From the NCBI GenBank assembly GCA_001797615.1, contig MGPV01000029.1, positions 30,583 through 94,582 on the forward strand: a DNA stretch of 64,000 bases, given 5' to 3'. The notes under the pieces are model-generated. The model was not told where the DNA came from and ran no database searches. It saw nothing but the letters and a program-made list of their open reading frames with translations. Source of the stretch: Deltaproteobacteria bacterium GWC2_65_14 (GTDB taxonomy: Bacteria > Desulfobacterota > Deferrimicrobia > Deferrimicrobiales > Deferrimicrobiaceae). Positions 1-13,055 of the stretch are shown one piece after another; the stretch's first letter is position 1; each line of letters starts with the position of its first letter. Made by a program: the position numbers and the translations under genes.

Positions 1-630
1 CAGCCCCCGGGTCGGAAGGGGAAGCGCCTGTCCGAGATGGGCGAAGACCCCGACGATCCGGGGGACGACGAAAGACATCAGGAAGATGACCACCAGGGCC
101 GCGACGGAGGCCATCAGGACCGGGTAGGTCAGCGCGGAGCGGACCCGGTTCCTCGTGCGGGACTGCTCCTCCAGGTGGTCGGCCAGCCGGGAGAGGGAGA
201 GCCCCAGCGTCCCGCTCTCCTCGCCGGCCCGGACCATGCTCGCGTAGAGCTCCGGGAAGCGTTCCGGATGGGACTCCACGGCGCGGGCGAGCGAGGCGCC
301 CCCCCGGACCGCCTCCGCGACGTCGGCGAGCACCGCGCGGCTTTCCGGGTCGTCCACCTGTGCGGAGAGGGAGGTGAGCGCCGAGACCACCGGGACGCCG
401 GCGCCGACCAGGGTGGCCAGCTGCCGCGTCAGCAGGGGGAGAACCTCCTGCCGGCCCAGGAGCGAGAGCGACGGGAAGATCCTCCCTTTCCCGGTCTCCA
501 CCGAAAGGGAGAGGGGGTACATCCCGTCGGCGCGCAGCTTCCCCCGCGCGGACAGGAGGGTGTCGGCGTCGAGGACTCCCTTCCTCTCGACGCCCTCCCG
601 CGTCACCACCGTGTACCGGAAGGTGGGCAA
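1..630 (-). CDS. gspF: Type II secretion system protein GspF, N-terminal part (gene runs off the left edge)
   Basis: The minus-strand frame is open from a TTG at ~630 (GGAG-type RBS upstream) to the window edge. My translation reads LPTFRYTVVTREGVERKGVLDADTLLSARGKLRADGMYPLSLSVE...VESHPERFPELYASMVRAGEESGTLG, a typical GspF/PilC N-terminus. It follows gspE in the canonical C-D-E-F order. It is absent from the ORF track because it has no in-window stop. Confidence 0.8.
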   Translation of the reverse strand, partial: MPTFRYTVVTREGVERKGVLDADTLLSARGKLRADGMYPLSLSVETGKGRIFPSLSLLGRQEVLPLLTRQLATLVGAGVPVVSALTSLSAQVDDPESRAVLADVAEAVRGGASLARAVESHPERFPELYASMVRAGEESGTLGLSLSRLADHLEEQSRTRNRVRSALTYPVLMASVAALVVIFLMSFVVPRIVGVFAHLGQALPLPTRGL

Positions 631-637
631 GGCGCTC

Positions 638-2167
638 CTACTCCTCCCGCGTGACGCGGAGGACCTCCTCCACGGAGGTGATCCCTTCGCGGACCTTCGC
701 GGCGCCCGACGCCAGGATCGTCCGCATCCCCCTGGCCAGGGCATGCTCCCGGATCCCTTCCGAGTCGGCCCGGGTCAGGATGAGCGCCCGGAGCCGGTCG
801 TCGACGACCAGGATTTCGAAGATCCCGGCGCGGCCCCGGTAGCCGGTGCTCATGCAGGCGGGGCATCCGGGGGCCTGGTAAAAGCTCCCCGAGGGCGATC
901 CGGCCAGCCCGATCTCCCTCCACTGCTCCGGGGACGGGGAATAGGGGACCCGGCAGTCGAAGCAGAGACGCCGGACCAGCCGCTGGGCGATCACCGCCGT
1001 GAGGGAGGAGGCGACCAGGAACGGCTCGATCCCCATGTCGACCAGGCGGGTCACCGCGGAGGCCGAGTCGTTCGTGTGCAGGGTGGAGAGCACCAGGTGG
1101 CCGGTGAGCGAAGCCTGGATCGCGATCACGGCCGTCTCGGGGTCCCGGATCTCCCCGACCATGATGATGTCGGGGTCCTGGCGAAGGATCGACCGAAGGC
1201 CCGAGGCGAAGGTGAGATGGATCTTCGGGTTCACCTGGATCTGGCCGATCCCCCGGATCTGGTACTCGACCGGGTCCTCGATGGTGATGATGTTCTTGGT
1301 CCCCGAGTCGAGGCGGCGCAGCGCGCCGTAGAGGGTCGTGGTCTTTCCCGACCCGGTGGGGCCGGTGACCAGCAGGATCCCGTTCGAGCGGGAGAGGATC
1401 CGCAGCATGGTGGAGAGGTCGCCGGGGTCGAGCCCGACATCCTCCAGCCCGAGCAGCAGGCTCGACCGGTCGAGGATCCGCAGCACCGTCCGCTCGCCGA
1501 ACGAGGTGGGGACGACCGAAATGCGGATGTCGATCTCCTTCCCCCCGACCCGGATCCGGATCCGCCCGTCCTGGGGGAGACGCCGCTCGGCGATGTCCAG
1601 GCCTGCCATCACCTTGATCCGGGAGACCACGGGGGCGTGCCACTTCCGGGGCGCCGTGACCATCGGGTAGAGGACCCCGTCGATCCGGTTGCGGATCGCC
1701 AGCTCCTTCTCGTAGGGCTCCACGTGGATGTCGCTGCTGCGCTCCCGGATCGCCCGGAAGATCAGGGAGTGGACGAACTTGATCACCGGTCCCTCGTCGG
1801 GCGACTCGAGCAGGTCCCGGGTCTCCTCGATGGCCGCCTCGACGTCGAGCTCCCACTCCCCGGAGAGCCCCTCCACGATCTCCCGCTCGGGGGTCTGGAC
1901 CTTCTCGTAGGCGGAGTCGATCATCCGCAGGATCGTCTCGGGCGGGATCGGAACGACCCGGACCGGCCCGACGAGGAAGCGGGTCTCGTCGATCGCGAAC
2001 GAATCGGACGGGTCCCCAGCGAGCAGGACGAGCTCCCCCTCCGGCCCCGTGCAGGGGAGGAGCAGGTGCCTTCGGGCATACCCGATCGGGATCTTCCCGA
2101 GCAGCCCGACCTCCGGCGTATACTCCGGGGAATCGGAGGGCGGTCGCTGGTCCGTCGACTGGCTCAT
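638..2167 (-). CDS. gspE: Type II secretion ATPase GspE
   Basis: 509-aa ORF with Walker A GPTGSGKTTT, the GspE/PilB N-terminal domain and a C-terminal tetracysteine motif (CFDCRVPY...CPACMSTGYRGR). It is flanked by gspD and gspF. Confidence 0.92.
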   Translation of the reverse strand: MSQSTDQRPPSDSPEYTPEVGLLGKIPIGYARRHLLLPCTGPEGELVLLAGDPSDSFAIDETRFLVGPVRVVPIPPETILRMIDSAYEKVQTPEREIVEGLSGEWELDVEAAIEETRDLLESPDEGPVIKFVHSLIFRAIRERSSDIHVEPYEKELAIRNRIDGVLYPMVTAPRKWHAPVVSRIKVMAGLDIAERRLPQDGRIRIRVGGKEIDIRISVVPTSFGERTVLRILDRSSLLLGLEDVGLDPGDLSTMLRILSRSNGILLVTGPTGSGKTTTLYGALRRLDSGTKNIITIEDPVEYQIRGIGQIQVNPKIHLTFASGLRSILRQDPDIIMVGEIRDPETAVIAIQASLTGHLVLSTLHTNDSASAVTRLVDMGIEPFLVASSLTAVIAQRLVRRLCFDCRVPYSPSPEQWREIGLAGSPSGSFYQAPGCPACMSTGYRGRAGIFEILVVDDRLRALILTRADSEGIREHALARGMRTILASGAAKVREGITSVEEVLRVTREE

Positions 2168-4389
2168 GGCTTCTCCGTGGGGGCCCTCTCCGGGAAGATC
2201 CTCTCGATCTCCCCCTTGTGCTGTTCGATGAACCGGTCCATCCTTCCCTGCTGGTCTCCGGTGATCTTCGTCATGTCGGCCGGGTTCACGATGACGCGCG
2301 GGGTGAGGAAAAGGAGCAGGTTCGTCTTCTTCCTGGAGACCGACTGGAACTTGAAGAGGTTCCCCAGGAGAGGGATGTCCCCCAGGAGCGGGATCTTTCG
2401 CTCCAGCTTGTTGAAGGTCTCCTGCATCATCCCGCCGATCACCACGGTGTCGCCGTTCTTCACGAGGACGCTGGTCTTCGCGGAGCGCTTCGTGGTCGTG
2501 GGCCCGACGGTGGAGAGCGCAAGGAGGGTGTCTCCCTTCACGGCGGAGGACTCCTGGTAGATCTCCAGGTTCACGAACTCGCTCTCGTGGATATGGGGGG
2601 TGATTCGCAGGATGATCCCGACGTCCTTGCGCTCCACGGTGTTGATGACGTTCGCGAGGTTCGTGCTGTCCCGCGACTGGCTGGTGATGAACGGGATGTT
2701 CTCGGCGATGATGATCTCCGCCTCCTTGTTGTCCAACGTCAGCAGATGCGGGGAGGAGAGCACGTTCACGTTGTCCCGGCTTTGGGCGGCGCGCAGGACC
2801 GCCGTGATCGCGGGGATCTCCGTCCCGTCCGGGAGCACGACGTTCCCGGCGATCCCGGCCGCGATCAGCCCGGTCCCGGAGAAGAGGAGCGGGTTCCCGG
2901 TGGCCAGCGACGCGAGCAGGGCGTTCAGGTTCCCCTGGAAGTCGAAGTTCGTCCCTCCCAGGACCGCCCCGCTCCTCCCCGTTTCCGCGGCGCCGCGGAA
3001 TTCCACGCCGAGGTCGCGCCCCTTGTCCAGGTTGATCTCCATGACCAGCGCCTCCACGTAGACCTGCCGGCGCCGGATGTCGAGCTTCTTGATGACCTCG
3101 ACCAGCGTCTGGTAGTCGTTCGGCGAGGCGATGACGATCAGGGAGTTGGTCGCCTTGTCGGCCGTGATCTTGACTCCCCCCTCCAGCTCCGCCGTGATGA
3201 CCCCCTTGATCGTGCCCGGAGGCTGGCCGGGGACGGTGGACCTTGCGGCCGACGACGAATCCGAGAGCGACGAGAGGACCTTGGCGGTCTCCTCGGCGGT
3301 GGCGTTCTCCAGGTAGTAGACGTTGATCTTCCCGGTGTTCTCCGGGGTCGGGATGTCGAGCCTGCGGATCAGGTCCTCCACGTCGTTCAGCACGTCCGGG
3401 ACCGCGAGGGCGAGGAGACTGTTCGTCCGGGTGTCCGGGAGGAACTTCGGCACGTTCCCCCGGGCCCTTCCCGGCAGGACCCGTCCGCGGGCTCCGGGGA
3501 CCTGCGGGGCGCCCGCCTGCTGGTAGAGCGAGTCGAGCATCCGGGCGACCTCCGCGGCGGAGGCATGCCGGAGCGGGAAGATCCGCAGCGTGCTCCCGGT
3601 TCCCTCCTGGTCGAGCTCCGCCAGGATCTTCATGAGCCGGTCGATGTTCGACCGGGAGTCGATCACGATCAGGAGGTTCGAGGTGGGAAAGGAGGTCAGC
3701 AGCCCGTCCTTCGAGATCATCGGGGTCAGCAGGGCGACGACATCCCCCACGTCGACGTATTGGAGAGGGATCAGGCGGGTAACGACCTTTGAGCCCGGCG
3801 CGTCGCTCCCCTCCCGTTCGGTGGGCATGCTCTCCTGCTTGGCGTCCCGCATCAGCACGATCTTGATCGTGTTCTCCTGCTCCACCGTGGCGAAGCCCTT
3901 GACGTGGAGGACCGACAGGAAGACGTTGTAGGCCTCCTCGAGGGTGATCCTGCGGGGGGAGATGATCGTGATCTTTCCCTGCACCCGCTCGTCGAAGATG
4001 AAGTTTTTCTTCGTCTGCTCGCTGATGAACTTGATCAGCACCGGAAGGTCCACGTCGGTGAAATCCATCGAGAGGTAGACCGGGGTGCGGGGGGTGGGCT
4101 GCGACTGGTTGTCGGCTGCGGGTCCCGGGGCCGGCGACTCGGGGATCGGGGCCTCGCCCTGCGTCGCCGGGGCGGCCGGAGGGGGTCCGGCCGAGGGGGT
4201 TCCCGCCTCCGGGGAGGTCGGAGTCTGCACCGCCGGGGGTGATTGCACCTCCGTGGAGGTCGGGGTCTGCACCGCCGGGGGCGATTGCCCCGCGGGAGGG
4301 GACTCCTCGGCCGCCCGTGCGCCTGAGGTGATCAGCCAGAGGGCCGCCGCAGCCAGGACCATCTTTCGCATCGCGCTCTCCCTGCTCAT
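2164..4389 (-). CDS. gspD: Type II secretion outer-membrane secretin GspD
   Basis: 741-aa ORF with signal peptide, N0-N3 domains and the C-terminal secretin domain (…VVIGGMMQET…IPLLGDIPLLGNLFKFQS…). It overlaps gspE by 4 nt. The N-terminus carries a Pro/Thr-rich 14-aa tandem repeat. Confidence 0.93.
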   Translation of the reverse strand: MSRESAMRKMVLAAAALWLITSGARAAEESPPAGQSPPAVQTPTSTEVQSPPAVQTPTSPEAGTPSAGPPPAAPATQGEAPIPESPAPGPAADNQSQPTPRTPVYLSMDFTDVDLPVLIKFISEQTKKNFIFDERVQGKITIISPRRITLEEAYNVFLSVLHVKGFATVEQENTIKIVLMRDAKQESMPTEREGSDAPGSKVVTRLIPLQYVDVGDVVALLTPMISKDGLLTSFPTSNLLIVIDSRSNIDRLMKILAELDQEGTGSTLRIFPLRHASAAEVARMLDSLYQQAGAPQVPGARGRVLPGRARGNVPKFLPDTRTNSLLALAVPDVLNDVEDLIRRLDIPTPENTGKINVYYLENATAEETAKVLSSLSDSSSAARSTVPGQPPGTIKGVITAELEGGVKITADKATNSLIVIASPNDYQTLVEVIKKLDIRRRQVYVEALVMEINLDKGRDLGVEFRGAAETGRSGAVLGGTNFDFQGNLNALLASLATGNPLLFSGTGLIAAGIAGNVVLPDGTEIPAITAVLRAAQSRDNVNVLSSPHLLTLDNKEAEIIIAENIPFITSQSRDSTNLANVINTVERKDVGIILRITPHIHESEFVNLEIYQESSAVKGDTLLALSTVGPTTTKRSAKTSVLVKNGDTVVIGGMMQETFNKLERKIPLLGDIPLLGNLFKFQSVSRKKTNLLLFLTPRVIVNPADMTKITGDQQGRMDRFIEQHKGEIERIFPERAPTEKP
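4213..4288. repeat. In-frame 42-bp tandem repeat (about 1.8 copies, 2 mismatches) inside the gspD 5' region
   Basis: ggaggtcgg(a/g)gtctgcaccgccggggg(t/c)gattgc recurs at 4213 and 4255. It encodes the repeated peptide VQTPTS(T/P)E… in the GspD N-terminal linker. Confidence 0.8.
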
Positions 4390-5898: not shown

Positions 5899-6375
5899 TC
5901 AGATCCGGAGCCAATCCTCCTGGAGGACATCCCCGCGCAGCCCGACGACCACCGCCTTGACCGGCACCTTCCGGGAGCTCTCCTCCCAGGCGTTGATCGC
6001 CATCTGCGCCAGTCCCCGGCAGCAGGGGACCTCCATGATGGCGACGGTGAGCGACTTGATGTTCGACTCCTCGAACAATCCCTTGAGCTTCTCGGCGTAG
6101 GCCTCCTGCCCGCCGTCGAGCTTCGGACAGGCGATGGCGAGCGCCTTCCCCTTGAGCATGTCCTGGTGGAAGCTCCCGACGGCGAACGGGACGCAGTCGG
6201 CGGCCAGGAGCACCTCCGCTCCCTGGAAGTAGGGAGCGGCCGGGGAGACCAGGTGGAGCTGGATCGGCCACTGGCGAAGCTCCGAAGGGACCCGGGCGGC
6301 CTCCGTACCCCCCTGGTCCGGTTTGTCGTCGTACGCAATCGTCCTGGAACTCGGGCAACACTGGGAACCGCTCAT
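5899..6375 (-). CDS. Small cysteine-rich hypothetical protein (possible metal/redox-binding)
   Basis: ORF track 5899..6468. The likely start is the ATG at 6375, preceded by AGGAGG (MSGSQCCPSS…). The Cys pattern is CC…ADCVPFA…IACPKLDG…EVPCCRGL. I recognise no family with confidence. A weak DsrE/TusD-like flavour is only a guess. Confidence 0.5.
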   Translation of the reverse strand: MSGSQCCPSSRTIAYDDKPDQGGTEAARVPSELRQWPIQLHLVSPAAPYFQGAEVLLAADCVPFAVGSFHQDMLKGKALAIACPKLDGGQEAYAEKLKGLFEESNIKSLTVAIMEVPCCRGLAQMAINAWEESSRKVPVKAVVVGLRGDVLQEDWLRI

Positions 6376-6449
6376 CGTAACCTCCTGTCCGTTCCGCGTC
6401 CTCAATGGGATGCGAAGGATCAATGTTCTTCCATTGTTTTCCGGGAGAG

Positions 6450-6519
6450 ACCGTCGTTTCCTTGACAAGGGTCAAGCCGGATACAATAAGGTTCATCCCT
6501 GCGCAACAAGGAGGCAAAG
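6450..6519 (+). promoter_or_regulatory. Putative promoter and strong RBS of the decayed acyl-CoA dehydrogenase gene
   Basis: TTGACA, then a short ~14-nt spacer, then TACAAT, then AAGGAGG 6 nt before the ATG at 6520. The spacer is suboptimal. Confidence 0.4.
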
Positions 6520-7195
6520 ATGTACGATTTCATGCTCTCCGAAGAGGCGAAGTCCACGGTCCGGGAGGTCCGCGAATTCGTCCGGGACGAGGTGCCGCCC
6601 GAGTATCTGCGGGCGATGGACCGGGACGAGATCCGCTATCCCCGGGAATTCGTCGAAAAACTGGGGGGAAGGAACCTGCTCGGCCTGCGGTTCCCGAAAC
6701 GGTGGGGCGGGAGGAACCTGCCCTGGACGGCCGAAATCGCGGCGATCGAGGAGACCGGCGTGCTCGGGACGGCGCTGTGTTGCGCGTACGTGATGCCATC
6801 GATGGTCGGGGAGGCGCTGGACAAGTTCGGCACGGAAGAGCAGGGCGGCCCGGTCCGTGGATGCCGACTCCCCCAACATGCGCCGGATCGTCAGCGAGGC
6901 GAAGAAGTTCGCGACCGACACGGCCTGGGAGGTGGCGAACCAGGCGATGCAGGTGATGGGGGGGATCGGGTACACCGACGTCTACCCGATCGAGAAGGCG
7001 GTCCGGGACATCCGGCTCTCCCAGATCTGGACCGGCACGAACGAGATCATGAGCCTGCTGATCCAGCATGAATATTTCCAGGAGGTGCTGGAGAGTCCCT
7101 CCGACCGCAGGGACGTCGAGCAGGACGCCATGCACGCCGACGACTCGGAGAAGGTCTACGCGGACGAGGACCAGAAGAAGGGGATGGCGCGGTAA
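6520..7195 (+). pseudogene. Acyl-CoA dehydrogenase pseudogene with an internal deletion and frameshift
   Basis: The frame starting at 6520 encodes an ACAD N-terminal domain up to …LDKFGTEEQ (~108 aa) and then loses similarity. A different frame (6857..7195) encodes only the extreme ACAD C-terminus (…[43 protein letters not shown]…). The total span is ~225 codons against ~380 for intact ACADs, so ~150 residues of the middle domain are missing. Confidence 0.8.
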
Positions 7196-7219
7196 AAAAA
7201 AGGCCTCCTTGCGGAGGCC
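7194..7219 (-). terminator. Rho-independent terminator (native tRNA-Glu terminator displaced by the insertion)
   Basis: An A8 run on the plus strand is followed by the hairpin GGCCTCC-TTGC-GGAGGCC (7202-7219). On the minus strand this reads as hairpin then U8. It lies immediately distal to the displaced tRNA-Glu 3' fragment. Confidence 0.75.
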
Positions 7220-7225
7220 GGAGAG

Positions 7226-7273
7226 TCCTGGCGGTCCCACCGGGGTTCGAACCCGGGTTTTCGCCGTGAGAGG
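7226..7273. repeat. attR-like direct repeat: displaced 3' part of tRNA-Glu (48 bp identical to 11089-11136)
   Basis: tcctggcggtcccaccggggttcgaacccgggttttcgccgtgagagg is identical at both sites. It covers the 3' acceptor, T-arm and part of the anticodon stem of the minus-strand tRNA-Glu. Confidence 0.9.
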
Positions 7274-7511
7274 TGGACAGGCTCCGCGTGGGGCTCCTGA
7301 AAGGCCGGCCGCATGCGCCCGGGCGGGCGTGGAACCCGAACGCGAAGGCGCGGCACGATGAATCGGAAGAGAGACGGAAGGCCGGGGCGGAAAAGGCGGC
7401 GCGGAGACAGGAGTCGAAGCCTTATGCCGTGGGGACGGTGATCTCGGTCCTCTCCCTCTTGAAGCGGATCGCCAAGCGGGCGCTTTCCAGCTTCTCCAGC
7501 TCTACACGGGG

Positions 7512-7991
7512 TTGCGGCGGGGCGAGGTGCGGAAACTCAAGTGGACGGACGTGAATCTTGAGCGCGGCTTCATCCATATTCGCGATCCCAAGGGGGGCGT
7601 GGACCAGGTCATCCCGTTGTCCGACGCCGCGCGGGACCTGCTCTCGGAACATCCGCGTGAGGAGCGCAGCTCCTATGCCTTCGCCGGCGACCGGATGGGA
7701 AGCCCCCGGGGGATGCGTCAGATCTCCGAGGCATCGAGGAAGATCCGCGACGCCGCCGAGCTGCCGCCGGAGTTCCGCCCGAATCATGGGCTCCGGCACA
7801 CGTTCGCCTCGCATCTCGCGAGCCCGGGCGAGGTGGACCTCTACACGCTCCAGCGGCTCATGACCCACAAGAGCCCGATGATGACGCAACGGTACGCGCA
7901 CCTGCGCGACGAAACTCTCAAGCGCGGCGCGAACGTCATGTCCCGACTTGTGGCGGCAGCCGAGGAGAAGGTGGCCGAGAAGGCCGAATGA
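7512..7991 (+). pseudogene. int: Tyrosine recombinase/phage integrase, C-terminal catalytic domain only
   Basis: The 159-aa ORF starts at box I (TGLRRGEVRKLKWTDV). It contains HGLRHTFAS (HxxR) and MTQRYAHL (catalytic Tyr). An in-frame stop lies ~50 nt upstream. I find no N-terminal SAM-like/arm-binding domain in any frame of 7274-7511. Confidence 0.65.
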
Positions 7992-7995
7992 CCGG

Positions 7996-9096
7996 CTATT
8001 CCGGTTGGAGCAGCGAGTAGCTTGTACTTCGGCCCCCGGCCGGGTCCTTCGCCAGGATTCCGCGGTCCACGAGGTCGACGATGTCGCGCAAGGCCGTATC
8101 CTGCGAACACTTTGCCATCTTCGCCCATTTCGACGAGGTCAGTTTGCCTTCTATCCCGTCCAGCAACTTGTTGAGCATCAAGTTTTGCCGCTCGTTGAAC
8201 GATGCTCCGCCATGGGAGCCCCAGAAACGGGCCTTCCGGAACACCTCGGCAAGCGTTCTCTCCGCTTCGTCGAAGGAGCGTTCCAGGCACCCCAGGAACC
8301 AGTCCAGGCGCTCCGTGATGTCAAGCGTTCCCTTCTGCGTCTGTTCCAACCCCCCGTAGTAGGCGTTCCGTTCCTGCCGCATCTGGGCCGACATGCTGTA
8401 GAACCTCTGTGGGCTTTGCTCCGAGCGGGCAAGCGTCATGTCTGCGATAGCTCGGGCGATGCGCCCGTTGCCGTCGTCGAAGGGGTGTATGGTCACGAAC
8501 CACAGGTGCGCGATGCACGCGCGCAGCACAAGATCCGTCCCGTCGCCTCCGTTGAACCAATCGAGGAAGGCCGTCATTTCTCGCTCGATCCGGTCGGCAG
8601 GCGGCCCCTCGAAATGTACGCGTTCGTGGCCGAGCGGTCCGGAGACGACCTCCATGGAAGCATCCCGCCAGGTGCCGGCGTTGATCTTCCTGAGGCCGCT
8701 GTAGCCGGTCGGAAACAGCGACGCGTGCCAACCGAACAGTCTTTCCCGGGTCAGAGGCTTGTCGTAGTTACGCGTGGCGTCAAGCACCATCTCGACCACA
8801 CCCTCGACCTTCCTGTCTTCCGGCGTCAAGGCGCCGATGTCCACGCCCAGCCGCCGGGCGACGGAGGAACGCACCTGATCCTTGTCCAGGATCTCCCCTT
8901 CGATTTCGCTGGACTTAAGGACTTCCAGCGTCAGCGTACGCAACTCGGCTTCTTTCCGGAGAGTAAATCCCAGTGCCTGCATCCTTCCGATCAGCCGATC
9001 CTGTTTGTGGCGGACCGCGGTAAGTCGTGGGAAGATGGCTTCCTGGTTCCAACGGAATCGAGGCCAGTCCGGCAAATCGTAGATATAGTTGTTCAT
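7996..9096 (-). CDS. fic: Fic family protein (class II, intramolecular inhibitory helix; probable AMPylator)
   Basis: 366 aa. It has the Fic motif HPFDDGNGRIAR, an N-terminal Fic_N region with the inhibitory motif SSEIEGE ([S/T]xxxE[G/N]), and a C-terminal winged-helix-like tail. Confidence 0.88.
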   Translation of the reverse strand: MNNYIYDLPDWPRFRWNQEAIFPRLTAVRHKQDRLIGRMQALGFTLRKEAELRTLTLEVLKSSEIEGEILDKDQVRSSVARRLGVDIGALTPEDRKVEGVVEMVLDATRNYDKPLTRERLFGWHASLFPTGYSGLRKINAGTWRDASMEVVSGPLGHERVHFEGPPADRIEREMTAFLDWFNGGDGTDLVLRACIAHLWFVTIHPFDDGNGRIARAIADMTLARSEQSPQRFYSMSAQMRQERNAYYGGLEQTQKGTLDITERLDWFLGCLERSFDEAERTLAEVFRKARFWGSHGGASFNERQNLMLNKLLDGIEGKLTSSKWAKMAKCSQDTALRDIVDLVDRGILAKDPAGGRSTSYSLLQPE

Positions 9097-9107
9097 TCAC
9101 CGCACCA

Positions 9108-9140
9108 CATGCGGAGATTATAGCCGATATTCTCCGCATG
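9108..9140. repeat. Palindromic element H1 (10-bp stems CATGCGGAGA / TCTCCGCATG, 13-nt loop) overlapping the putative fic promoter
   Basis: A perfect inverted repeat is seen directly. On the minus strand the loop contains TATAAT (plus 9117-9122). With TTGCCC at plus 9140-9145 and a 17-nt spacer, this makes a sigma70-like promoter ~14 nt upstream of the fic ATG. Confidence 0.7.
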
Positions 9141-9186
9141 GGCAACCTCATTATCTGGTTCAAAGACCGGATCAGCACAGAACCGC

Positions 9187-9221
9187 AGAAAATGCGGAGA
9201 ATAAGGCCCATAATCTCCGCA
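9187..9221 (-). terminator. Palindromic element H2 (8-bp stems TGCGGAGA / TCTCCGCA, 13-nt loop) with downstream U-tract: terminator of the SEC-C gene
   Basis: It has the same stem sequence and a similar loop to H1. On the minus strand the hairpin is followed by TTTTCTG. It lies 8 nt after the SEC-C stop codon. Confidence 0.65.
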
Positions 9222-9228
9222 GCCGACG

Positions 9229-10596
9229 CTACTCTTTTTCCAACCCCAACCGTTCCCACAGGAATCCGAAGTCGAAGGGTTCTCCGCCCCCTCCCCGCGC
9301 CTTTCTCGCCTCATGGAGCTCGAAATCCTTGAGCAGATCGATCACCGCCTGTCGCCCCTTCTTCGTCCGGACCGCGGCCTTCGGAGTTTTCCCGCCGAGC
9401 GCCGGCACAGGCTCGTCGGGCCACCGTTCGTAGTGGCGTCTTAAGAATTCCCGCTCTACTTGGGCTTTCAATTCGGGAGGAATCTCCTCCCTTGGTGATT
9501 TTTTTGCCGCCGCCATTGCCTTGGGCGACATGGGGTCCACAATCTCACGCGCCTTGAATCGGATGGCCGTTCCCGCGATCTTCTCCAGCCATCGGCGCGC
9601 CCCGTCGGCGAGTTTGAGCGTGGGGCAGAAGACTTCGAGGGTATCCGAAGACTTCTTCGTCAAGGATGCCCGGGAGCGGCGCATCTGGTCTTTCATGGGC
9701 TCGAACCGAATCCAACCTTCGTCGATGTCGCCGTCCACATCCGGCTGTGCGGAGAGAACGGCGGTGAGTGCATCCCAGTCGGTTACGGTGAAATGGTCGA
9801 CGGTGAGCGAGACAGGATCCCCCGTCGATGCATGCACGACCTGAGGGAACTGCGGCACCTCCGTGTACTGCTCCAGCCAGTAGTCGGCGATGGTCGTGCC
9901 GACGACTTCGCGGTAGATTTCGTCGTCGACGGTTTTCTCGCGCGCCAATTCGTCGAGGATCTCTTCCCGGCACTCGAGCGGTCGACGGCGGTCCAGGGGA
10001 TAGATGGCGCCGGTCAAGACGTAGCCGTCGGGCCGGCGGGCAATCCGCGCTCCGAAGATGTCCCACTTGACCAGGCTCTTGGAGGCAGTTCGCTCGGTCA
10101 CCTTCACAACCGGCGCGTCGATTCGAAGCAAGTCCTTGATATCGAGTCCTTCACCCGGCGTCAAATGCTGAACTTCATAAAGGCTCAGCGGGTTCTCGCC
10201 AATCGCCTTCAGCCACTCCCTCCCTTGTGCGGGCAACAACGGGCCACCTGGCCCCAGGGCAAGATCGACGGCGCGGACGCGTTTGCCTTCGACGTCGAGA
10301 ATGGCATCAGCAACGAGCCACTCCCCGATGTTGATATCCAGCATTCCTTTCGGGCCGGGCGGGAGGGCGTGGATAATATCGAGTTCCTCCTGGTCGAAGC
10401 CGCCAAGGTAGGTTTCGACGATCGCGTCGTCCACTTCCTCATCGTAATGCGTTTTCAGCCACGCGATCGCGGCGGCGACGGCCGCGTGTTCGTCGCCCGA
10501 AAGCGACACGGCCGCCCGGTCTTTTTCGATGCAGCATTTCTTGTATTTCAGCCCGCTGCCGCACGGGCACGGATCGTTTCGGCCAACCTTGTCCAT
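9229..10596 (-). CDS. SEC-C motif (metal-binding) domain protein, function unknown; co-transcribed with upstream MazF-like gene
   Basis: 455 aa. The N-terminus has [16 protein letters not shown] (SEC-C/YecA-type Cys4 motif). The remainder is acidic and Trp-rich with no catalytic motif I recognise. A GGGAGG RBS sits 11 nt before its ATG, inside the 55-nt gap after the toxin gene stop. Confidence 0.75.
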
Positions 10597-10651
10597 CGGA
10601 TCACGGACCTCCCGCCGGGAACTGGCGCTCTATCGCAAGCTTATGTTCCTA

Positions 10652-10966
10652 TTACTTCCCATCGGTGCCTTTTATCTTTATCCGATCCAGACGGCAAGTG
10701 GCAACCGTCGCCATCATGTCGCATTTCGCCCACGTGGGCCTGTCGGCGTAATGCCCCGGCAATGACCGAGGATCCATGCGGTGGTGGTGGTCCTCGACCG
10801 GATTGGGAGCGGTAGTGCTGAGCGGAACGATCGTGACAAGCTCCACCCTCCGCCGCCTTCCCGATATTACGATTACCGGCCGGGTTTTTACCATCTCGGG
10901 CGCCTTGAAACCGGAGAAGTCACAGACCAGGAGCGTTCCGGCATCCGGATGGAATGTGAGCGCCAT
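10652..10966 (-). CDS. mazF: MazF/PemK-family endoribonuclease toxin homologue (no cognate antitoxin gene detected)
   Basis: 104 aa. It aligns by eye to E. coli MazF: PDAGTLLVCDFSG~PDMGDLIWVDFDP, EMVKTRPVIVIS~EQAGHRPAVVLS, LVTIVPLSTT~MCLCVPCTTQ, and C-terminal …ATCRLDRIKIKG. The upstream 124 nt to the tRNA contain no ORF with a start codon. Confidence 0.8.
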   Translation of the reverse strand: MALTFHPDAGTLLVCDFSGFKAPEMVKTRPVIVISGRRRRVELVTIVPLSTTAPNPVEDHHHRMDPRSLPGHYADRPTWAKCDMMATVATCRLDRIKIKGTDGK

Positions 10967-10974
10967 GGCAAGGA

Positions 10975-11003
10975 AGGGTATCCTTGGTGGAAGGAAGTGT
11001 CAA
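10975..11003 (-). promoter_or_regulatory. Putative promoter of the mazF-like/SEC-C operon (TTGACA-17-TACCCT), near-leaderless
   Basis: Minus-strand TTGACA is at 11003-10998, the spacer is 17 nt, and a weak -10 TACCCT is at 10980-10975. Only ~8 nt lie between the -10 and the ATG at 10966. No SD is present. Confidence 0.45.
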
Positions 11004-11004
11004 C

Positions 11005-11028
11005 GGTATGAGTAATGGTATGAGTAAC
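11005..11028. repeat. Tandem 12-nt direct repeat (ggtatgagtaaT ggtatgagtaaC) abutting the -35 of the toxin promoter; candidate operator
   Basis: Seen directly. It sits immediately upstream (minus-strand sense) of the TTGACA box. Confidence 0.7.
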
Positions 11029-11088
11029 CCCGTCAGAATTCGGCCAAAAAAGAAGGAGAACCGCAAGTCTGCGATTCTCCGTGGTAAT

Positions 11089-11136
11089 TCCTGGCGGTCC
11101 CACCGGGGTTCGAACCCGGGTTTTCGCCGTGAGAGG
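11089..11136. repeat. attL-like direct repeat: element-supplied 3' part of the reconstituted tRNA-Glu gene
   Basis: 48 bp identical to 7226-7273. Confidence 0.9.
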
Positions 11137-11167
11137 GCGGTGTCCTAGTCCACTAGACGATGGGACC
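11092..11167 (-). tRNA. tRNA-Glu (anticodon CUC), CCA encoded
   Basis: The reverse complement reads GGTCCCATCGTCTAGTGGACTAGGACACCGCCCTCTCACGGCGAAAACCCGGGTTCGAACCCCGGTGGGACCGCCA. It has a 7-bp acceptor stem, anticodon loop CTCTCAC and T-loop GGTTCGAAC. Confidence 0.9.
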
Positions 11168-11170
11168 TTC

Positions 11171-11245
11171 TGGCTGAGGAGCCAGGATTCGAACCTGGAA
11201 AACCTGGTCCAGAGCCAGGCGTGATGCCGTTTCACCACTCCTCAA
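11171..11245 (-). tRNA. tRNA-Gln (anticodon CUG), CCA encoded
   Basis: The reverse complement reads TTGAGGAGTGGTGAAACGGCATCACGCCTGGCTCTGGACCAGGTTTTCCAGGTTCGAATCCTGGCTCCTCAGCCA. The acceptor stem has U1-G72, the anticodon loop is CTCTGGA and the T-loop is GGTTCGAAT. It lies 3 nt from tRNA-Glu. Confidence 0.85.
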
Positions 11246-11348
11246 CGGAACTGGCAGGATAGCCGAGCATGCCTCCTCCCGTCAAGCGGGATTCCGCAAC
11301 GGACGCCCCGTTTTGACTCGATCCCGGCGGCATGCTATTTCTTTACGG

Positions 11349-13055
11349 ATGCAGACCCCGGAAGGAACGGACCGGAAGGATTTTCTCCGGGAAATCGTCC
11401 GGCAGGACACGCGGGACGGCCGCCACGGCGGCCGGGTCGTGACCCGCTTTCCCCCCGAGCCGAACGGCTACCTCCACATCGGCCACGCCAAGTCGATCTG
11501 CCTGAACTTCGGCATCGCGGAGGAGTTCGGCGGGATCTGCCACCTCCGGTTCGACGACACCAACCCGGAAACCGAGGACGTGAAGTATGTCGAGTCGATT
11601 CAGCGCGACGTGCGCTGGCTCGGTTTCGATTGGAAGGACAAGCTCTTCTTCGCTTCCGACTATTCCGGGCGGCTCTATGAATTCGCCGTCCGGCTGATCC
11701 GGGACGGCAAGGCCTACGTGGACAGCCAGAGCGAGGAGGAGATCCGGGCGAACCGGGGAACCGTCACCGAGCCGGGGACCGAAAGCCCGTACCGCGGCCG
11801 CACCGTGGAGGAGAACCTCGACCTCTTCGCCCGGATGCGGGCCGGGGAGTTCCCCGACGGGGCGCATGTGCTGCGCGGCAGGGTGGACATGTCGGCGGCC
11901 AACATGAAGATGCGCGACCCGCTCCTCTACCGGATCCGGCACGCCACACACTACCGCACCGGCGACTCCTGGTGCCTCTACCCGATGTACGACTTCGCCC
12001 ACCCGCTCTCCGACGCGATCGAGGGGATCACCCACTCGAACTGCACGCTGGAGTTCGAGAACAACCGGGCGGTCTACGACTGGCTGCTCGACTGCCTCTT
12101 CGCCGAGCCGAGGCCCCACCAGTACGAGTTCGCCCGCCTGAACCTCGACTACGCGGTAATGAGCAAGCGCAAGCTGCTTCAGCTGGCGGAGGAGGGTCTG
12201 GTCACGGGGTGGGACGATCCGAGGATGCCGACGATCGCCGGGATGCGGCGGCGCGGGTACACCCCGGAGGGGATCCGCCTCTTCGCGGAGCGGATCGGCG
12301 TGGACAAGGCGAACAGCCGGGTCAGCATGGAGATCCTGGAGGACGCGATCCGGGACGACCTGAACGCCCGCGCCCCCCGCGTCATGGCGGTCCTTCGCCC
12401 CCTCAAGGTGACGATCGGAAACTACCCGGAGGGGAAGGTCGAGTGGCTCGAGGCCGGATACTGGCCCCGCGACATCGACCGGGAGGGCTCCAGGAAGGTT
12501 CCGCTCTCACGGGTAATCCATATCGAACGGACCGATTTCCTCGAGGATCCCCCCGCCGACTGGATCCGGCTCAAACCGGGCGGGGAGGTGCGGCTGCGCA
12601 ACGGCTACTTCATCCGCTGCGAATCGGTCGAAAAGGACCCGGCCACGGGGGAGGTGGCCGCTCTTCGGTGCAGCTACGACCCGGCCTCCCTCGGGGCGCC
12701 GTCGAAGGGGCCGCGGAAAAAAACCACCGCCGTCCAGTGGGTCTCGGCCGCGCATGCGCTTCGGGCCGAGGTGCGTCTCTACGACCGGCTCTTCACCGAG
12801 GCGGACCCGGAAAGCGCGGGGGAGGAGAGGGGTTTCCGGGATTTCCTGAACCCGGCCTCGGTGGAGATCCTCACGGGCTGCATGCTCGAGCCGGGGCTTG
12901 CGGACGCCTTGCCCGGCGAACGCTTCCAGTTCCTGCGCCACGGGTACTTCATCGCCGACGAGACCGACTCGCGCCCCGGGGCTCCTGTCTTCAACCGGAT
13001 CGTCGGCCTGAAGGACCGGTACAGGGCGGGGACGGCGCAGCCGGGCCGGGAGTAG
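11349..13055 (+). CDS. glnS: Glutaminyl-tRNA synthetase
   Basis: Class I motifs RFPPEPNGYLHIGHAKS and VMSKR. The C-terminal anticodon-binding beta-barrels match GlnRS, not GluRS. The ORF track starts at TTG 11313. ATG 11349 (MQTPEGTDRKDFLREIVRQD…) fits the GlnRS N-terminus better. Confidence 0.9.
   Translation: MQTPEGTDRKDFLREIVRQDTRDGRHGGRVVTRFPPEPNGYLHIGHAKSICLNFGIAEEFGGICHLRFDDTNPETEDVKYVESIQRDVRWLGFDWKDKLFFASDYSGRLYEFAVRLIRDGKAYVDSQSEEEIRANRGTVTEPGTESPYRGRTVEENLDLFARMRAGEFPDGAHVLRGRVDMSAANMKMRDPLLYRIRHATHYRTGDSWCLYPMYDFAHPLSDAIEGITHSNCTLEFENNRAVYDWLLDCLFAEPRPHQYEFARLNLDYAVMSKRKLLQLAEEGLVTGWDDPRMPTIAGMRRRGYTPEGIRLFAERIGVDKANSRVSMEILEDAIRDDLNARAPRVMAVLRPLKVTIGNYPEGKVEWLEAGYWPRDIDREGSRKVPLSRVIHIERTDFLEDPPADWIRLKPGGEVRLRNGYFIRCESVEKDPATGEVAALRCSYDPASLGAPSKGPRKKTTAVQWVSAAHALRAEVRLYDRLFTEADPESAGEERGFRDFLNPASVEILTGCMLEPGLADALPGERFQFLRHGYFIADETDSRPGAPVFNRIVGLKDRYRAGTAQPGRE

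Follow-up and report, generated by a model that had tools for sequence, protein, structure and literature searches.

A probable decayed integrative islet at the tRNA-Glu(CUC) gene of a Deferrimicrobiaceae bacterium

The locus and the known classes of tRNA-gene islands

Genomic islands integrated in tRNA genes (tDNA) have been defined by Islander (Hudson, Lau and Williams 2015, PMC4383910; Williams 2002 cited therein), and an attachment site centred on the anticodon ('A'), with a block of identity reaching the tRNA 3' end, represents one of the Islander classes (PMC4383910). Here, we examine an islet of 3.9 kb adjacent to tRNA-Glu(CUC) in a stretch of 64,000 nucleotides (nt) of Deltaproteobacteria bacterium GWC2_65_14 (contig MGPV01000029.1, positions 30,583 to 94,582), hereafter the window; coordinates are positions in this window unless a locus label (L and a number) stands before them. 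Like the Islander islands, the islet shows a full-length, intact tRNA gene and, downstream of it and equally oriented, a cognate 3' fragment (48 of 48 positions identical), as well as an 'A' subsite, a length within the range of 2 to 200 kb and, between tRNA and fragment, an open reading frame (ORF) of the integrase family PF00589 that is neither of the Xer nor of the integron type. An empty-site allele in a close relative, the gold standard that goes beyond what Islander considers, was not found, its surrogates being locus L094 and the comparison of L176 with L177 described below. Different from typical Islander islands, whose sizes peak at 13.6 and 39.9 kb (PMC4383910), the islet is only 3.9 kb long. 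Moreover, its integrase gene is a pseudogene, and its host is an uncultured Deferrimicrobium-like bacterium. The islet is a small, dead and immobilised case of this well-known class and no new phenomenon.

In streptococcal systems of the ICESt type, cis-mobilizable elements (CIMEs) and tandem accretion occur at the attachment (att) sites of integrative and conjugative elements and islands. The islet shares with CIMEs the presence of att sites at both ends and the lack of a working recombination module, and its relatives resemble CIME arrays, with a newer integrase-bearing element beside an integrase-less or dead islet at the same tRNA (L176 and L179). However, no cognate intact integrase is found in the window, and both the host and the integrase family differ from those of CIMEs. 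The contact between the integrase frame and the att core also recalls the archaeal SSV-type and the Mx8-type elements, where attP lies inside the integrase gene, and a split integrase was suspected because the frame starts at the core edge. Different from those elements, the core contains a TGA in the integrase frame (7267-7269; likewise in L082), and the sole ORF of the opposite arm (10984-11148) has no similarity to integrases; therefore, the gene was not split by integration. As for the cargo, the closest described system is SoFic, a single-gene anti-phage defence for which the mechanism and the AS1 antitoxin have been reported (PMC12249575).

Repeat, integrase remnant and relatives at tRNA-Glu(CUC)

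A small integrative element very probably entered tRNA-Glu(CUC) by tyrosine-integrase recombination at the anticodon-loop subsite, and its integrase gene (int) was later inactivated. This reading is supported by the intact tRNA with a 3' fragment in the same orientation, the int remnant at the edge of that fragment, the 3' end and terminator supplied by the element, the base composition and the cargo (Table 1). Site-specific integration into a tRNA gene had been proposed in an initial annotation of the window; the structural predictions of that proposal hold, and its integrase ancestry is found in relatives.

Table 1. Features of the islet and of its immediate flanks (window positions)
Feature	Position	Strand	Evidence or remark
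Acyl-CoA dehydrogenase (ACAD) pseudogene, left flank	6520-7195	+	Pfam; GC content at third codon positions (GC3) 0.87-0.95, host-like
Intrinsic terminator after displaced fragment	7194-7219	-	7-bp GC stem, GCAA loop, T8; folding free energy (dG) -17.1 kcal/mol, z -3.2
Distal 48-bp copy, displaced tRNA-Glu 3' fragment, attR core	7226-7273	-	Repeat search
Integrase pseudogene, N-terminal remnant	7273-7473	+	GTG at 7273 or 7288; P0003 residues 1-59 align to 7294-7473
Integrase pseudogene, catalytic domain, other frame	7467-7991	+	Pfam PF00589 Phage_integrase 2.9e-26
Fic protein (DUF4172 + Fic + C-terminal domain), SoFic-like	7996-9096	-	Pfam; PADLOC SoFic 6.2e-40
Pair of units (~40 nt) before Fic, palindrome TGCGGAGA-N13-TCTCCGCA in each	9099-9221	.	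Repeat search, folding
SEC-C-motif protein, 455 amino acids (aa)	9229-10596	-	Pfam SEC-C; weak ParS/Xre-antitoxin-like C terminus
PemK/MazF-like toxin, 104 aa	10652-10966	-	Pfam PF02452 PemK_toxin 3.1e-10, 40.7 bits vs cut-off 23.1
Tandem 12-nt repeat GGTATGAGTAAT/GGTATGAGTAAC, arm next to intact tRNA	11004-11027	+	2 exact copies, 0.23 expected
Intrinsic terminator + T-run after intact tRNA-Glu	11055-11080	-	dG -25.2 kcal/mol, z -5.2
Proximal 48-bp copy, attL core; 3' part of functional tRNA-Glu	11089-11136	-	Repeat search
tRNA-Glu(CUC), intact, integration target	11092-11167	-	ARAGORN; Rfam 56.7 bits vs gathering score 29
tRNA-Gln(CUG)	11171-11244	-	ARAGORN, Rfam; 3 nt upstream of tRNA-Glu

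The two 48-bp copies form a perfect direct repeat with a start-to-start spacing of 3,863 bp, exactly where the initial annotation had placed it, and the 25-nt core of the repeat, with up to three mismatches allowed, occurs only at these two sites in the window, against none expected from shuffled sequences. The repeat corresponds to nt 32-76 of tRNA-Glu, with the encoded CCA, plus 3 nt downstream. It had been described as the acceptor, the T-arm and part of the anticodon stem, and these are indeed included; its extent was understated, since it begins with the final base of the 5' anticodon-stem strand and takes in the entire anticodon loop, the 3' stem strand, the variable region, the T-arm and the acceptor end. 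The proximal copy completes a functional tRNA, as had been anticipated and as the ARAGORN and Rfam calls agree, whereas neither program calls a tRNA at the distal copy. The tRNA-Gln and tRNA-Glu genes probably share one transcription unit.

Each copy is followed by an intrinsic terminator. The one after the distal copy, a hairpin with a U8 tract already noticed in the initial annotation, folds as expected and can serve the minus strand only, the plus strand having no T-run after the hairpin; the tRNA fragment is the sole minus-strand feature upstream of it. This terminator may originally have belonged to tRNA-Glu, prior to the arrival of the islet; alternatively, it could represent the arm of an older, vanished element. 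A supposed homology between it and the hairpin following the tRNA fragment of L179 was dropped, as the similarity (~60%) is too weak. The terminator after the proximal copy, which the initial annotation did not contain, has a homologous arm in L176, L177 and L093; it appears to be borne by the element and to terminate the rebuilt tRNA-Glu now.

The integrase had been described as a catalytic-domain fragment only. The catalytic domain is present, with the blocks RRGE, HGLRHTF(ASH) and RYAHL, invariant across the family alignment, kept in its frame; the restriction to that domain does not stand, since an N-terminal remnant precedes it in another frame. In fact, residues 105-275 of P0003, the closest longer integrase (281 aa), align by tblastn with 7467-7982 at 72% identity, and ~45 codons (~135 nt) have been deleted between the two remnants, in addition to a frameshift, leaving ~60 N-terminal codons. 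A stop at 7359-7361 interrupts the catalytic frame, and no uninterrupted ORF covers the core-binding and catalytic regions. The integrase frame begins at the repeat edge, where the final repeat base is also the first base of the GTG start codon at 7273. P0003 scores far under every Xer and integron cut-off of NCBIfam. Both the window integrase and P0003 lack the arm-binding-like N-terminal domain and the complete core-binding region that characterize the full-length members of the family (335-418 aa). A match of 'VDRLR' at the junction to the core-binding motif of the family was judged fortuitous, because the alignment pairs the N terminus of P0003 with that of the family and leaves an internal gap of ~60 aa.

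The base composition of the islet is distinct, as the initial annotation had expected: its GC content is 61.4%, against a window mean of 66.6% (standard deviation 1.7, in 3.8-kb windows), the lowest values of the 64 kb lying here, and the GC3 of the islet genes is 0.70-0.79, compared with 0.85-0.95 for the flanking genes. Two independent assemblies span the whole islet, namely an ENA groundwater contig (L088; 99.95% identity over 10.5 kb) and a JGI contig (L001; ~99.9%), so that an artefact joining unrelated contigs is unlikely. L001 differs by two indels, both within the islet and none in the flanks. One is a 35-nt deletion at the 3' ends of int and Fic (window 7958-7991; L001 ~3997), which removes the last codons of the int remnant, the int and Fic calls then overlapping; in the other, one palindrome unit of the pair preceding Fic has been lost. 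Taken together, these indels would fit relaxed constraint and, with the deletion and frameshift in int, they agree with the earlier view that the islet is immobilised and decaying.

Furthermore, the arrangement of fragment and integrase recurs in relatives. In L082/L083, the gene for P0003 abuts the 3' fragment of a tRNA-Glu gene, and the junction (GAGAGG followed by TGGAC) is the same as in the window. The integrase P0024 (60% identity; L095), encoded in an element with a D5-type primase, is separated from an upstream tRNA-Met 3' fragment by ~400 nt, or by ~260 nt if an upstream ATG is taken as the true start. Four provirus ends from IMG/VR (L097, L099, L102 and L103) carry family integrases preceded by tRNA 3' fragments of the same relative orientation, and at least six members of the family show this layout.

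In a sister species (L177/L178), the order Memo - GltX - tRNA-Gln - tRNA-Glu is followed by a terminator and a tandem 11-nt repeat and then by a SEC-C gene, a DUF4143 ATPase gene, an int remnant with 90% nucleotide identity to that of the window and a PIN toxin-antitoxin pair. L176 (7234-13509) and L177 (3364-9655) come from different samples and share 99.54% identity across 6.3 kb, starting exactly at nt 29 of the tRNA. Upstream of this point, L177 has the rest of tRNA-Glu, whereas L176 carries an element that terminates with a full-length integrase of the islet's family (418 aa; int418), which abuts a 48-nt tRNA-Glu fragment. We read this difference as a within-species polymorphism, occupied versus unoccupied, at the same tRNA-Glu position, although for a different element, and L176 itself as a case of tandem accretion. 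In L176, the arm with the terminator and the tandem repeat follows the fragment and not the intact tRNA; this arm accompanies the SEC-C islet rather than the tRNA.

Nested tRNA-Glu remnants are found in L179, where there are three (1466-1513, 1691-1710 and ~2503-2519), and in L082, where there are two (9834-9850 and 9933-9980). Such progressively shorter 3' remnants, with toxin-antitoxin genes between them, have the appearance of fossil att sites of serial integrations. L094 has no island: its tRNA-Glu, which is identical, has its own terminator and then ordinary genes downstream. The L176/L177 polymorphism, the remnants of L179 and L082 and the L094 locus indicate, therefore, that tRNA-Glu(CUC) is a repeatedly used hotspot in this clade.

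Mechanism, age and alternative histories

It is possible to reconstruct how integration would have proceeded. In the free element, attP would have consisted of the arm with the tandem 12-nt repeat and the terminator, the 48-bp copy of the tRNA 3' part and the start of int, in this order. A circular intermediate would presumably have recombined with the host tRNA gene by a crossover placed in or beside the anticodon loop, through which the 5' third of the tRNA, contributed by the host, would have been joined to the 3' copy and terminator of the element. The tRNA would thus have stayed functional, while the host's own 3' part and terminator would have been displaced by 3.86 kb, beside int. The later deletion of ~135 nt and the frameshift would have killed int and, as a consequence, locked the islet in place. 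The remaining cargo would be of the addiction or anti-phage type, consisting of a SoFic-like AMPylase with palindromic operators, a conserved SEC-C protein and an orphan PemK/MazF-like toxin.

As regards age, the segment with the int remnant and Fic is 90% identical at the nucleotide level to L086, where the GlnRS gene (glutaminyl-tRNA synthetase) and the gsp genes are 73-78% identical; this value, along with the 48/48 identity of a fragment not under selection, points to the islet having arrived after the species diverged. The cargo around SEC-C has been swapped, with Fic in the window and the DUF4143 ATPase in L177, and PemK was seen in this strain alone. The SEC-C element family has probably circulated for a long time within the clade.

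Several observations weigh against integration as reconstructed here. The SEC-C genes of the relatives are 75-87% identical, near the divergence of the hosts (73-80% for housekeeping genes), and SEC-C stands beside tRNA-Glu in many of them; it follows that part of the islet could be old. An old islet would fit poorly with the 48/48 identical fragment, unless the family kept moving or gene conversion took place. None of the relatives compared carries this exact element in an intact form, and even P0003 misses ~60 core-binding residues with respect to the members of 335-418 aa. The native origin of the terminator at 7194-7219 cannot be demonstrated, because the left flank, with the ACAD pseudogene, is non-syntenic with relatives. 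In addition, the comparison with related genomes suggested by the initial annotation did not yield the expected empty site: the conspecific contigs, recovered by exact-protein look-ups, are either occupied (L001, L087 and L088) or end at or inside the repeat (L089 to L091), and an explicit empty-junction pattern had 0 matches in the JGI metagenomes.

The loci anchored on GlnRS in 185k species genomes belong to distant relatives only and include no empty site; the closest, in a metagenome-assembled genome of Candidatus Deferrimicrobium (79%), has no tRNAs beside GlnRS. As regards the three truncated contigs, which come from independent assemblies and correspond to window 6252-7257, L089 and L090 end ~30 nt into the repeat and L091 ends 5 nt before it. 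Such ends are expected for a repeat or a branch of the assembly graph and are no proof of an empty-site allele.

The same evidence bears on three other histories. The islet might be a CIME-like hitchhiker, provided with both att sites and without a working integrase, and excised, moved or accreted in trans by full-length family integrases acting at the same tRNA-Glu; this possibility, which we consider unlikely, refines the integration described above rather than contradicting it. The two att cores are intact and identical in the absence of a functional recombinase, int418 has been active at the same tRNA position in the sister species (giving the tandem order tRNA, new element, fragment, SEC-C islet), and nested remnants are found in L179 and L082. 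Furthermore, the int remnants are 86-90% identical at the nucleotide level across lineages with 73-80% identity in their core genes, which would be odd for a vertically inherited pseudogene, although recent independent integrations with parallel decay would equally produce this identity. The 64-kb window, however, holds no second integrase of the family, a search of viral contigs for the circular (attP) junction gave 0 matches, and the attP arm of int418 is unlike the arms of the islet, so that cross-recognition is hypothetical. In a quite improbable alternative, the islet would be composite, an older SEC-C islet having acquired a later int-Fic module (and PemK) through successive integrations or cargo swapping, with the internal att remnants lost. 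Mosaic identities are in line with such a history, since the int-Fic segment matches L086 at 90%, where SEC-C has no match, and SEC-C matches L176-L181 at 75-87%, where Fic is missing; so are the restriction of PemK to this strain, the different occupants of the slot between SEC-C and int in the window and in L177, and the tandem arrays that do form at tRNA-Glu. Nevertheless, the DNA between the two copies contains no further tRNA-Glu remnant, even with 3 mismatches allowed, and L177/L178 display the same single-element design, with the order arm - cargo - SEC-C - cargo - int - core; a tandem model would put the newest integrase in the element nearest to the intact tRNA, and not in a distal position with the older cargo proximal.

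The distal copy could also be thought of as a partial tRNA pseudogene, originated by local duplication or recombination and flanked by an int remnant through coincidence. The failure to recover an empty site would agree with this idea, as would the large deletion in the neighbouring ACAD gene, which marks the region as prone to rearrangement. However, the int frame starts at the repeat edge, and the same junction occurs in an independent element of another species; the layout of fragment and int is shared by the family members mentioned above; the anticodon loop, where the repeat has its boundary, is a canonical subsite for crossover (PMC4383910); and the fragment is in direct orientation downstream of the tRNA, with intervening DNA of foreign composition. 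A chance pseudogene is thus extremely improbable and effectively excluded. Integration by a tyrosine integrase could finally be combined with trans-mobilization in a broader, tentative and rather doubtful proposal, in which a family of minimal elements (~4-6 kb) specific for tRNA-Glu(CUC) would exist in Deferrimicrobium-like bacteria, with a recurrent SEC-C gene and variable defence or toxin slots, and would persist with dead integrases by hitchhiking on full-length family integrases that share the att core. In such a family, int expression might possibly be wired across attP, with the repeat and a presumed promoter on the other arm, so that integration would separate them from int.

Cargo, small repeats and flanking genes

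The cargo corresponds to the three genes named in the initial annotation, which Pfam assigns to DUF4172 and Fic, SEC-C, and PemK_toxin. Residues 8-360 of the Fic protein cover positions 14-349 of the 361 in the PADLOC SoFic profile (PDLC03963), whereas the score against the NCBIfam SoFic equivalog NF046030 is 31.8 bits, with a cut-off of 550; the protein is therefore best described as SoFic-like and not as a SoFic equivalog. The features in common with SoFic are, besides this full-length match, the HxFx(D/E)GNGRxxR motif, occurring as HPFDDGNGR in the active site (HPFDDGNGRIAR present), the N-terminal inhibitory (S/T)xxxE(G/N) motif, occurring as SSEIEG, and the C-terminal domain. Different from SoFic, no AS1-like small gene lies downstream, where it would be impossible, because Fic converges on int within 5 nt; two palindromic candidate operators are found upstream instead. 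The Fic protein also has a full-length match to phrog_5978 (1.7e-70), a phage family of unknown function.

The SEC-C gene is the cargo common to the tRNA-Glu islets of relatives. The AlphaFold2 model of its product reaches a predicted local distance difference test (pLDDT) score of 86, with no structural relative in the PDB, and the similarity of its C terminus to the ParS/Xre antitoxin profile (20.8 bits) is below the cut-off of 24.5. The PemK protein has a full-length match to phrog_15698 (1.9e-31), likewise a phage family of unknown function. No MazE-type antitoxin gene could be recognized beside PemK, the 120 nt upstream containing the terminator and the tandem repeat only; the gene downstream is that of the SEC-C protein, whose ParS/Xre-like C terminus is only a lead to a possible PemK antitoxin. 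The search of the cargo against mobile-element databases, which the initial annotation had recommended, was informative only in part: in the plasmid and phage databases, the Fic gene alone has plasmid relatives (65-70% nucleotide identity), and nothing meaningful was found among phages.

Two types of small repeats occur in the islet. The first of the two palindrome units upstream of Fic overlaps its promoter-like TTGCCC-17-TATAAT site, the palindrome is kept upstream of Fic in L086 (7378-7406), and L001 has one unit only (2851-2890). These units are probably operators for Fic autoregulation. Tandem direct repeats of 10-12 nt recur in the element arm near the tRNA, with two copies of GGTATGAGTAAY in the window, a similar pair in L093 (~205-229) and two copies of GGTTCCAACAC in the L176/L177 arm (L177 ~3475-3500); in L095 (~9840-9865), two copies of GTTATGAGTG are placed between a consensus promoter and the int start. 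These tandem repeats are candidate arm-type integrase sites or operators; in a circular form of the islet, those of the window would be located upstream of int, with the att core in between.

On the left flank, the N-terminal domain (3nf4_A residues 16-116) and the final ~60 residues of the C-terminal domain (324-382) encoded by the ACAD pseudogene are in different frames, ~200 codons having been lost, and the lesion is fixed in all conspecific contigs. ACAD was of no use for anchoring synteny: in L092, which has the closest other homologue for which context is available (81%), the neighbourhood is unrelated. The homologue search apparently returned only proteins of similar length, with intact ACAD orthologues outside its listing. 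Further upstream, L087 (1-4175, compared with window 1-1031) has other genes before the type II secretion genes, namely those for an E1-E2 ATPase, an FKBP and a fusion of T2SSE with a response-regulator domain, and is 99.5% identical to the window from 1032 on, which indicates a probable strain-level rearrangement.

The position of GlnRS (window 11313-13055) varies among relatives, as can be observed by comparing the window with L082, L086, L179, L177 and L180. Most relatives have the order gspC - GlnRS - [island array] - tRNA-Glu - tRNA-Gln - GltX, whereas in the window and in L094 GlnRS is found between tRNA-Gln and GltX, and in the window the other GlnRS slot is taken by YjbQ, AF_0155 and the ACAD pseudogene. 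No simple inversion or excision accounts for this relocation.

The islet offers a clean example of how an island that targets a tRNA gene rebuilds that gene, terminator included, and then decays, and it provides an annotation anchor, of modest value, for an uncultured lineage, the Rifle-type groundwater relatives of Deferrimicrobium. In this clade, tRNA-Glu(CUC) is a hypervariable hotspot that gathers toxin-antitoxin and defence genes. The SEC-C family, which is widespread, confidently foldable and repeatedly found on these islets, is the only real unknown here and a candidate for a defence or addiction role.

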